DNA from: Escherichia coli
Lineage (GTDB): Bacteria; Pseudomonadota; Gammaproteobacteria; Enterobacterales; Enterobacteriaceae
Direction: 5' to 3' (one strand)
Assembly: GCF_030013205.1 (NCBI RefSeq)
Contig: NZ_CP122648.1
DNA length: 64,000 bases
This document shows positions 58,301 through 61,300 of the stretch, one piece after another. Position 1 is the stretch's first letter, and each line of letters opens with the position of its first letter. Made by a program: the position numbers.

Positions 58301-61300
58301 TTTGATCCGCTATCCGCTGGCTGCCCGCCGCTGGAGTTCATGCAGGTACGCGGCATGTTAAAAGGCTTTATCGACCTGGTATTCCGCCACGAAGGGCGTT
58401 ATTACCTGCTCGACTATAAATCCAACTGGCTGGGTGAAGACAGTTCGGCTTACACCCAACAGGCTATGGCAGCGGCGATGCAGGCACACCGCTATGATCT
58501 GCAATATCAGCTTTATACCCTGGCGCTGCACCGTTATCTGCGCCATCGCATTGCTGATTACGACTATGATCGTCACTTTGGCGGCGTTATCTATCTGTTC
58601 CTGCGTGGCGTTGATAAAGAACATCCGCAACAAGGGATTTACACAACCCGACCCAACGCCGGGTTGATTGACCTGATGGATGAGATGTTTGCCGGTATGA
58701 CCCTGGAGGAGGCGTAATGAAATTGCAAAAGCAATTACTGGAAGCTGTGGAGCACAAACAGCTACGCCCGCTGGATGTGCAATTTGCCCTGACCGTGGCG
58801 GGAGATGAACATCCTGCCGTCACCCTCGCGGCAGCCCTGTTAAGCCACGACGCCGGAGAAGGGCATGTCTGTTTACCGCTCTCACGACTGGAAAATAACG
58901 AGGCGTCGCATCCGCTGTTGGCGACCTGTGTCAGTGAAATCGGTGAGTTACAAAATTGGGAAGAATGCTTGCTGGCTTCACAAGCGGTCAGCCGGGGAGA
59001 TGAACCAACGCCGATGATCCTCTGTGGTGATCGTCTTTATTTGAATCGCATGTGGTGTAACGAGCGCACAGTGGCACGCTTTTTCAACGAAGTGAATCAT
59101 GCCATTGAGGTTGATGAAGCTCTACTGGCGCAAACCCTGGACAAACTTTTTCCAGTAAGCGATGAAATTAACTGGCAAAAAGTTGCGGCGGCAGTGGCGC
59201 TGACGCGGCGGATCTCGGTGATTTCCGGCGGCCCTGGCACCGGTAAAACGACCACCGTAGCGAAGTTGCTGGCTGCGTTAATTCAAATGGCCGACGGCGA
59301 ACGCTGCCGTATCCGTTTGGCTGCACCAACGGGTAAAGCTGCCGCGCGCTTAACCGAATCTCTCGGCAAGGCTTTGCGCCAGTTACCGCTGACCGATGAA
59401 CAAAAGAAACGCATTCCGGAAGATGCCAGTACTTTGCACCGATTGCTGGGTGCACAGCCGGGTAGCCAGCGTTTACGTCATCATGCCGGTAACCCGCTGC
59501 ATCTTGATGTGCTGGTGGTAGATGAAGCGTCAATGATCGATCTGCCGATGATGTCGAGACTGATCGACGCCTTGCCCGATCATGCGCGAGTGATCTTTCT
59601 CGGCGATCGTGATCAACTGGCCTCGGTTGAGGCTGGGGCTGTGCTGGGCGATATTTGTGCTTATGCCAATGCCGGCTTTACCGCCGAGCGTGCCGGGCAG
59701 CTAAGCCGCCTGACGGGAACTCACGTTCCGGCAGGAACTGGCACAGAAGCGGCATCTTTGCGCGACAGTCTCTGCCTGCTGCAAAAAAGCTATCGTTTCG
59801 GCAGCGATTCTGGCATTGGTCAGTTAGCTGCGGCGATCAACCGTGGTGATAAAACGGCAGTGAAAACCGTTTTTCAGCAGGATTTTTCTGATATCGAAAA
59901 ACGGCTTTTACAGAGCGGCGAAGATTATATTGCGATGCTTGAGGAAGCTCTTGCGGGTTACGGACGTTATCTGGATCTGCTGCAAGCGCGTGCCGAGCCG
60001 GATTTAATCATTCAGGCGTTCAATGAGTACCAGCTTTTGTGCGCCCTGCGGGAAGGGCCGTTTGGCGTGGCTGGACTGAATGAGCGAATTGAGCAGTTTA
60101 TGCAACAGAAGCGCAAAATTCATCGTAATCCGCACTCTCGTTGGTACGAAGGCCGACCGGTGATGATTGCCCGTAATGACAGCGCGCTTGGGTTGTTTAA
60201 TGGCGATATCGGTATCGCTCTGGATCGCGGACAGGGGACGCGCGTTTGGTTTGCGATGCCGGACGGCAATATTAAGTCTGTGCAACCGAGTCGCCTGCCA
60301 GAGCACGAAACTACGTGGGCGATGACGGTACATAAATCGCAGGGATCGGAGTTCGACCATGCGGCGTTGATTTTACCGAGCCAACGCACGCCGGTAGTAA
60401 CACGAGAGCTGGTTTACACCGCGGTGACCCGCGCGCGTCGCCGTCTGTCGCTGTATGCCGATGAGCGCATATTAAGTGCGGCAATCGCCACTCGTACTGA
60501 GCGGCGCAGTGGTCTGGCGGCATTGTTTAGTTCACGGGGATAAACGTAATTGCCGGATGCGACGCACGAGTGTTACGCATGTCGCATCCGGCGATTTTCA
60601 TCGCTTACCCCAAATCCGCCATCAACACTTTGGATTTACGCTGGTAGTTGTACAACTGCTTTTTGCTCTCGGGCAGTAAATCAATATCCACTGGGGTAAA
60701 TCCACGTTCCTGGAACCAGTGAATACTGCGCGTGGTCAGCACAAATAATTTGCTTAAGCCGCTCTGCTTCGCCTGAGCGGCAATGCGTTCCAGCAGAACC
60801 TCGCCCCGTGATGAACTGCGGTAATCCGGGTGAACTGCCACACAGGCCATTTCCCCAATCTTCTCTTCCGGGAACGGATAGAGCGCGGCGCAGGCAATAG
60901 TCGTGTTATCGCGCTGAATAATGGTGAATTTGTCGATTTCCATCTCCAGCTGCTCGCGAGAACGGCGCACCAGAATACCTTGCTGCTCCAGCGGGCGAAT
61001 CAACTCCAGAATACCGCCAATATCGTTGATTGTTGCGCGACGAATCTGCTCGGCGCTTTCCATCACAATCTGCGTACCGATACCGTCGCGTGAGAACAAC
61101 TCTTGCAACAGCGCGCCATCTTCCTGATAACTGATTAAATGACAGCGACGCACGCCGCTGCGGCAGGCTTTCACTGCGCCACGCAAAAAGCGCACCGTAC
61201 CGGAGTTGTAATCACCTTTCTCTTCCTGGGCTTCTACCCGTGCTTGCGCTTCGTTAGGGAAAAGTTCGGAGACAATATCACCGTCGTCATTAGTGACGCC

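Follow-up and report, generated by a model that had tools for sequence, protein, structure and literature searches.

An intact repetitive extragenic palindrome (REP) of Escherichia coli is an imperfect palindrome of 29–37 nt, of type y, z1 or z2, with a preceding GTAG and an AA-GC bulge in its stem; the GTAG is crucial for binding and cleavage by the REP transposase TnpAREP, and correcting the bulge to a perfect stem abolishes activity (Corneloup et al. 2021). About 60% of REPs lie between convergent genes; they have been described as dual terminators and stabilisers, and 78 of them fall inside bidirectional terminators (Harris et al. 2026, bioRxiv 10.64898/2026.03.23.713779). Overlapping bidirectional terminators are known from SEnd-seq (sequencing of 5′ and 3′ ends together; Ju, Li and Liu 2019; Wang et al. 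2022), whose authors claim for the class as a whole that it is independent of Rho (Wang et al. 2022). In their collision model the opposing polymerase is blocked by one that the hairpin has paused, and release is brought about by a trailing polymerase. Here we compare with these systems a palindrome between the convergent genes recD and argA, found in 64,000 nt of E. coli DNA (RefSeq assembly GCF_030013205.1, contig NZ_CP122648.1); this whole stretch is called the window.

The palindrome is the window strain's allele of the K-12 element REP207, already catalogued and already mapped as a bidirectional 3′-end site. The best overall explanation, which we hold to be probable, is that it is the remnant of a decayed REP or bacterial interspersed mosaic element (BIME) whose hairpin fixes the 3′ ends of both neighbouring messages.

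The palindrome and its K-12 counterpart

A preliminary description of this DNA had reported a perfect 12-bp inverted repeat at 60552–60592, and our analysis recovered it at the same coordinates. The arms GCCGGATGCGAC (60552–60563) and GTCGCATCCGGC (60581–60592) are complementary at 12/12 positions with 17 nt between them, in the order GCCGGATGCGAC-GCACGAGTGTTACGCAT-GTCGCATCCGGC. A repeat finder returned 16-nt arms at 60548–60563 and 60581–60596, 94% complementary with one T/G mismatch. The placement between convergent recD and argA was likewise as described: the spacer is 61 nt long (60544–60604) and flanked by both stop codons. The locus is made up of the following parts.

58717–60543, + strand: recD coding sequence, 608 aa, stop TAA at 60541–60543; assigned from the open reading frame (ORF), the RefSeq name in a 100% identical genome (exodeoxyribonuclease V subunit alpha) and K-12 synteny
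60605–61936, − strand: argA coding sequence, 443 aa, N-acetylglutamate synthase, stop at 60605–60607; assigned from the translation, the RefSeq annotation of the identical genome and K-12 argA
60544–60604, no strand: recD-argA convergent spacer, 61 nt; its counterpart in K-12 is NC_000913.3 2950574–2950634, of equal length with two substitutions
60552–60563, no strand: left arm GCCGGATGCGAC, a REP head arm that reads GCCKGATGCGRCGY through 60565, with 0 mismatches to the degenerate REP head
60564–60580, no strand: apical region GCACGAGTGTTACGCAT, 17 nt, adding 2 pairs to the fold of the recD-sense RNA and 4 to that of the argA-sense RNA
60581–60592, no strand: right arm GTCGCATCCGGC, whose minus strand is a second REP head, GCCGGATGCGAC
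60548–60596, no strand: full extended hairpin with 16-nt arms AATTGCCGGATGCGAC and GTCGCATCCGGCGATT and one T/G mismatch, from the repeat pair and the minimum free energy structures
60593–60599, + strand: GATTTTC, a short U tract 3′ of the hairpin in the recD-sense RNA; the K-12 recD 3′ end corresponds to about 60598/60599
60547–60551, − strand: AAUUA tail 3′ of the hairpin in the argA-sense RNA; the K-12 argA 3′ end (2950631) corresponds to about 60547

Such a repeat is not expected by chance at this position. Perfect 12-mer inverted repeats with a loop of at most 40 nt occurred at 4 sites in the window versus a mean of 0.22 per dinucleotide shuffle, and arithmetic from the shuffles gives an expectation of ∼2e-4 for one given 61-nt spacer. 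With its flanks the RNA folded at −33.1 kcal/mol for the + strand (z −4.0) and at −38.9 kcal/mol for the − strand (z −6.4), and 0/200 shuffles folded equally well; the spacer alone folded at −29.8 and −30.5 kcal/mol on the two strands. A search of 60000–61200 against Rfam at permissive thresholds returned nothing at the hairpin, only two chance snoRNA matches elsewhere. We dropped a reading as a protein-binding operator: the arms correspond to the REP head motif, and at this site both genes end, far from the promoter of either.

In E. coli K-12 MG1655 the 61-nt spacer holds REP207, which shares its arms and loop with the window element. It differs from the latter by two substitutions, C at 60565 to T and G at 60591 to A, giving a loop of GTACG versus GCACG in the window and a right arm that ends in GAC versus GGC. 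The K-12 stem thus has a C/A mismatch on the recD strand and a G-U pair on the argA strand, whereas the window stem is a perfect 12 bp. Harris et al. (2026), whose REP locations come from EcoCyc, call the K-12 counterpart REP207 in their supplement. The RefSeq K-12 record has no REP feature at argA-recD, but it has none at the well-known RIP1 either (5565–5669), so the absence is uninformative.

The 3′ ends of both genes have been mapped in K-12. For these we used the SEnd-seq table of overlapping bidirectional terminators as reproduced, with REP names added, in the same supplement. There, row 233 lists an overlap of 52 nt at K-12 2950580–2950631, genes argA:recB:recD, REP207, delta G −27.5 kcal/mol, classed as ‘gene_convergent_transcription, gap_region’ and seen in log and stationary phase. 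By coordinate and sequence check, the 53-nt RNA listed in that row is K-12 2950579–2950631. The overlap maps to window 60547–60598, which puts the recD end at 60598 or 60599 and the argA end at 60547, separated by 4 nt from the stop codon of recD on the opposite strand. In K-12, therefore, the argA and recD messages each cross the hairpin and stop 1–6 nt beyond the stem. The preliminary description had proposed a bidirectional terminator, to be given up if the transcript ends lay away from the hairpin; the published ends of both transcripts do map there. These ends are those of the K-12 allele, two substitutions from that of the window.

Missing REP features

The palindrome had also been called REP-like, and the comparison bears this out: the left arm matches the degenerate REP head at 14/14 positions, the K-12 counterpart carries a REP name, and longer alleles of the spacer hold z2-type and y-type REPs. 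The REP head GCCKGATGCGRCGY has no other match in the window's non-coding DNA; here it matches without mismatch on the + strand (14/14) and with 1 mismatch on the − strand (13/14). A third match with one mismatch lies at 35678 within coding sequence, for an expected count of 0.18. Exact matches to GCCGGATGCG at 35678 and 50549 were set aside as chance; both are in coding sequence and have no partner arm. Like canonical REPs (y, z1, z2) and BIMEs, the window element is extragenic, sitting between two stop codons, and lies between convergent genes, and its left arm GCCGGATGCGACGC and right arm GTCGCATCCGGC match the outer (head) arms found in REPs of the z2 and y types.

The likeness ends with these arms. 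A whole-length y, z1 or z2 REP has the head GCCKGATGCGRCGY and the inner arm CGYCTTATCMGGC, but the window element matches in the head arms only, in which ∼15 nt from a z2-type REP and ∼13 nt from a y-type one survive. The inner arm (CTTATC / GATAAG) is absent from the whole 64-kb window, where scans with CTTATCMGGCCTAC at up to 2 mismatches and GTAGGCCKGATAAGRCG at up to 3 mismatches gave zero matches. Neither GTAG nor CTAC occurs in 60535–60610. In place of a stem with an AA-GC bulge there is a perfect 12-bp stem, and the linker of a BIME is missing. The element is also single-copy: the 53-nt window element was found at a median of 1 place per genome (BLAST, E up to 10), although BLAST at this database size is blind to matches of 12–14 nt, so that the shared arm motif alone could escape. 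What does tie it to REPs by descent is the locus itself, where z2-type and y-type REPs in spacer alleles of 81, 95 and 234 nt align to the window arms (alignments A1 and A2), with a direction of change that we infer. The window element is thus REP-like, or REP-derived, and not an intact REP. Because the GTAG motif and the stem bulge have been lost, the hairpin should no longer be a substrate of TnpAREP, and it would accordingly be immobile.

The same scans with CTTATCMGGCCTAC and GTAGGCCKGATAAGRCG found no canonical REP anywhere in window positions 1–64000, leaving the recD-argA remnant as its sole REP-related sequence. The 355 annotated REP loci in the 4.6 Mb of K-12 amount to an average of ∼5 per 64 kb, and the window seems REP-poor.

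The reduced anatomy also bears on a role at the level of DNA, as a site of binding or cleavage by gyrase, IHF, DNA polymerase I or HU, or as a cruciform affecting local supercoiling between the converging units. Roles of this kind have been proposed for BIMEs generally (introduction of Harris et al. 2026), and converging transcription would build positive supercoiling at this very position. Yet a single palindromic unit is left here, with no linker and no IHF-type motif such as that of RIP1, and Harris et al. (2026) found no chromosome-organising role of REPs. We regard a DNA-level role as very improbable.

Spacer alleles in E. coli

Alleles were counted in 5426 complete E. coli genomes. The 351-bp stretch around the palindrome was found in 5425/5426, one genome being 100% identical. 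The 53-nt window element was present at 100% identity in 746/5426 genomes and the K-12 form in 1720; the perfect stem is allele-specific and belongs to a minority allele. By length, the 61-nt spacer class comprises ∼4650 genomes, the 81-nt class ∼730–925, and the larger forms a few dozen.

Recognisable REPs occur in the longer alleles. The 81-nt allele (GABEEC10, L004) is the window allele plus 20 bp, GTGGGTCTTATCATGCCTAT, placed within the apical region at a junction at ∼60567/60568 (alignments A1 and A2). These extra 20 bp complete a z2-type REP, GCCTGATGCGACGC-ATGTGG-GTCTTATCATGCCTAT. In the 95-nt allele (L007) a decayed left REP is followed by an inverted y-type REP of canonical form, GTAGGTCGGATAAGGCGTCCACGCCGCATCCGAC, and the window right arm is the outer arm of the latter; a canonical inverted y-type REP, GTAGGTCGGATAAGGCG..CGCCGCATCCGAC, is found in both the 95-nt and the 234-nt alleles. 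GTAG is present in longer alleles (L007, L005, L088) or found there in decayed versions such as ATAG. The REP part of the 81-nt allele matched 22,490 places at 88–94% identity, with a median of 4 and up to 12 per genome. One of these dispersed copies, the aldB BIME (L087), is built as z2 REP, 12-nt linker and y REP, with the same outer arms.

Alignment A2 assigns each window arm to its own REP. The left arm corresponds to the outer arm of the z2-type REP in the 81-nt allele and the aldB BIME; for the right arm the counterpart is GCCGCATCCGRC, the inverted y-type REP's outer arm in L007 and the aldB BIME. The alleles form a nested series, from a BIME-like 95 nt through 81 nt to 61 nt. The window palindrome would thus probably be the two outermost head arms of oppositely oriented REPs, the remnant of a collapsed BIME, now paired as a perfect 12-bp stem that reaches 16–17 bp when the flanks are counted. 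We prefer interior deletion on grounds of parsimony, the alternative being a 20-bp insertion that completes a REP by coincidence.

A fuller version of this history has the window element as the exapted wreck of a z2-linker-y BIME. Nested deletions (95 to 81 to 61 nt) would have removed both GTAGs, both inner arms and the linker. The outer head arms would have been kept by selection for a common 3′-end hairpin, and now form a perfect stem that the transposase could not process. We put the chances of this version at about even. A pattern scan of metagenomes for the collapsed form (GATGCGRC N3-25 GYCGCATCMGGC) matched at least 120 contigs, mostly of 60–70% G+C and largely environmental, with no argA or recD among the matches listed; the scan therefore says nothing on recurrence of the collapsed form in enterobacteria.

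The spacer has also grown by duplication. In the 234-nt allele (L005; L088 has a similar form) the spacer and part of the argA 3′ end are repeated in tandem, and a canonical y-type REP sits where the copies join. In E. coli 23CRST004 and GPEC657 (L005 225–500 and L088 130–374) the duplicated part includes ∼35 nt of the argA 3′ end as a decayed pseudo-copy, and the junction REP is GTAGGTCGGATAAGGCGTTCACGCCGCATCCGAC. The 53-nt element has 33 extra places, at most 2 per genome, which are probably spacer duplications of this kind. The tandem arrangement suggests REP-associated local duplication.

Hairpins in the spacers of other Enterobacteriaceae

On both strands, every E. coli spacer allele has a fold of −22 to −30 kcal/mol. 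At 61 and 81 nt the outer arms pair with each other; at 95 nt this pairing gives way to another of longer range or to the inverted y-type REP folded on itself. We compared the argA-recD spacer at 77 loci from other Enterobacteriaceae. The two genes are convergent at 77/77, with a median spacer of 36 nt. Among spacers of 20–130 nt, 54/63 fold at −14 kcal/mol or below on both strands (median z −3.55), and each genus has hairpin sequences of its own. They are REP-type in Salmonella arizonae, with two inverted REPs, and in Citrobacter, with one. Elsewhere the hairpins are of other kinds (L012–L086): in Enterobacter GCCCTC(T/A)CC...GG(A/T)GAGGGC, and in Kosakonia GCCCCCGC...GCGGGGGC. The spacer of Kluyvera intermedia holds a long palindrome (CCCTCACCCTAACCCTCTCCC...), which we take to recall the boxC repeat of E. 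coli. Different repeat families may thus fill the same slot according to genus.

These comparisons bear on the possibility that the palindrome is a neutral fossil, a REP remnant that stays because its loss would carry no cost, with 3′ ends that are incidental to any stable hairpin and no selected role. Polymorphism of the spacer within E. coli (61, 81, 95 and 234 nt) would fit such neutrality, as would the stem mismatch in the commonest single allele counted and the eight loci in other genera whose spacers of 0–15 nt are free of hairpins. But the outer arms are the best-conserved part of the spacer among alleles (A2), every allele folds strongly on both strands, and a strong hairpin persists in the 54 spacers of other genera despite full sequence turnover, which points to selection on structure. 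A neutral fossil is, in our judgement, decidedly improbable. Structure and position that are kept while sequence turns over argue for a selected, RNA-level role at this junction.

Formation of the two 3′ ends

We return to the reading preferred here, a decayed REP/BIME remnant that fixes both 3′ ends. In this mechanism the recBD and argA mRNAs would both be transcribed through the hairpin, which would fold stably (about −30 kcal/mol) in each RNA. Each mRNA would end 1–6 nt past the stem, so that the messages overlap by ∼52 nt. In the recD-sense RNA, GAUUUUC comes after the hairpin and the U run closes at the mapped end, so that the element probably acts as a weak intrinsic terminator in this direction. 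On the argA side the tail is AAUUA, because of which an end made with help is likelier. Help might come from the converging polymerase, as in the collision model, or transcription might terminate further downstream and 3′-to-5′ trimming then halt at the hairpin. Either way the hairpin would fix and protect both 3′ ends and limit antisense transcription into the neighbouring gene. A role as mRNA stabiliser, which the preliminary description had also proposed, would be plausible.

The locus shares several attributes with the SEnd-seq overlapping bidirectional terminators: a gap between convergent genes, a hairpin that is stable as RNA on both strands, a 52-nt overlap in K-12, poor U tracts, and, for K-12, an entry of its own, 233, in the reproduced table. 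It departs from the class in its apical region, at 17 nt large compared with most entries in the available part of that table. Canonical intrinsic terminators are resembled in the GC-rich hairpin straight after a stop codon and in the recD-sense end at UUUU, 6 nt past the stem; the window element differs from them by its short U tracts, its 17-nt apical region and the failure of a consensus scan to call its main hairpin.

The absence of good U tracts lends itself to another account, in which the hairpin is a protective cap only. Polymerase would read through in one or both directions, Rho would end the antisense RNA downstream, and PNPase and RNase II would trim back to the hairpin, making it a stabiliser and not a terminator. 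Dar and Sorek (2018) found that Rho-dependent transcripts end right after stable stem-loops without U tracts, and saw those ends shifted in exonuclease mutants. The tails here fit, with AAUUA on the argA side and just 4 U on the recD side, as does a mild excess of C over G in the downstream RNA of both directions (88 C/71 G and 95 C/78 G in 300 nt). As a hint of Rho loading, however, this skew is weak both ways, and we set it aside as not decisive. The SEnd-seq authors call the terminator class Rho-independent, and REP207 is not among the REPs that Harris et al. list as overlapping or adjoining Rho-binding (rut) sites, being mentioned once in the part of their supplement that was available. 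On the recD side, moreover, the end lies at the close of the UUUU run, 6 nt past the stem, as hairpin-driven release predicts. We find a cap without terminator function unlikely, while giving it more weight than any other alternative considered here.

The hairpin's closeness to the stop codons, starting 4–8 nt past that of recD and 8–12 nt past that of argA, raises the further possibility of translation control. Terminating ribosomes would collide with the hairpin and stall, triggering transfer-messenger RNA (tmRNA) tagging and lowering the output of RecD, ArgA or both. REPs no more than ∼15 nt from a stop codon are reported to down-regulate translation through ribosome stalling and trans-translation. 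Such control would be additional to the definition of 3′ ends and not an alternative to it, and many ordinary terminators are equally near to stop codons. A proposed role of REPs in the regulation of translation is also mentioned by Harris et al. (2026). For this locus we judge it improbable.

Several points weigh against a remnant hairpin that fixes both ends by terminating and protecting the messages. Steady-state 3′ ends beside hairpins also arise from exonuclease trimming after Rho-dependent termination (Dar and Sorek 2018). Neither side has a canonical U tract, the tails being GAUUUUCA (recD side, 4 U in 8 nt) and AAUUACGU (argA side, 2–3 U in 8 nt), and in a scan with a simple terminator consensus the one call was a small sub-hairpin of 5 bp on the + strand, the main hairpin being passed over. 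Terminal REPs were without general effect on mRNA half-life (Harris et al. 2026). The mapped ends belong to a K-12 allele with a stem mismatch and not to the window strain, and independent 3′-end data were sought in the supplements of Adams et al. (2021) and Yan et al. (2018), which have no argA or recD rows. Row 233 of the Harris et al. table gives an overlap of just 13 nt between REP207 and the 52-nt terminator region, in a spacer of 61 nt; this could reflect a very short or displaced EcoCyc feature, or an unexpected way of calculating the overlap. The spacers without hairpins amount to 8/77 loci in other genera, and so a spacer hairpin is not indispensable. Finally, the direction of the deletion series is read from structure.

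Other palindromes in the window

A second convergent-gene hairpin, not REP-like, is a perfect 12-bp palindrome at 38512–38537, TTAACGCCGGTT-tt-AACCGGCGTTAA. It takes up most of the 31-nt spacer between convergent ORFs at 37315–38508 (+) and 38540–39580 (−), which are lplT and tas by K-12 synteny. The available part of the SEnd-seq bidirectional-terminator table reproduced by Harris et al. has no row for lplT/tas. At 8655–8691, in AT-rich sequence 33 nt past the end (8622) of a + strand ORF, lies a perfect inverted repeat of 16 bp, ATAAGAATCTACACGC-aaaaa-GCGTGTAGATTCTTAT, with TTTAAT after it; it looks like an intrinsic terminator. Another 16-bp perfect AT-rich inverted repeat, at 24055–24089 (GAATGGTTCAAAATTG-tag-CAATTTTGAACCATTC), lies just past the 3′ end of a − strand ORF (24100–25329) and could be a terminator or a protein-binding operator.

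Implications

Taken narrowly, the result has little significance beyond good annotation, raw sequence having recovered an element that was already catalogued and already mapped. The label ‘REP’ does, though, hide the loss in this copy of every feature that the REP transposase requires: it names a fixed hairpin and not a mobile repeat. If the history proposed here is true, the alleles segregating in E. coli are a natural series in which a mobile repeat turns into a fixed bidirectional 3′-end element. The same alleles could be used as ready-made constructs for relating the form of the hairpin to termination in each direction. The genus-specific hairpins of other Enterobacteriaceae support the view that the structure at the convergent-gene junction is what selection acts on, with REPs as one convenient supply.

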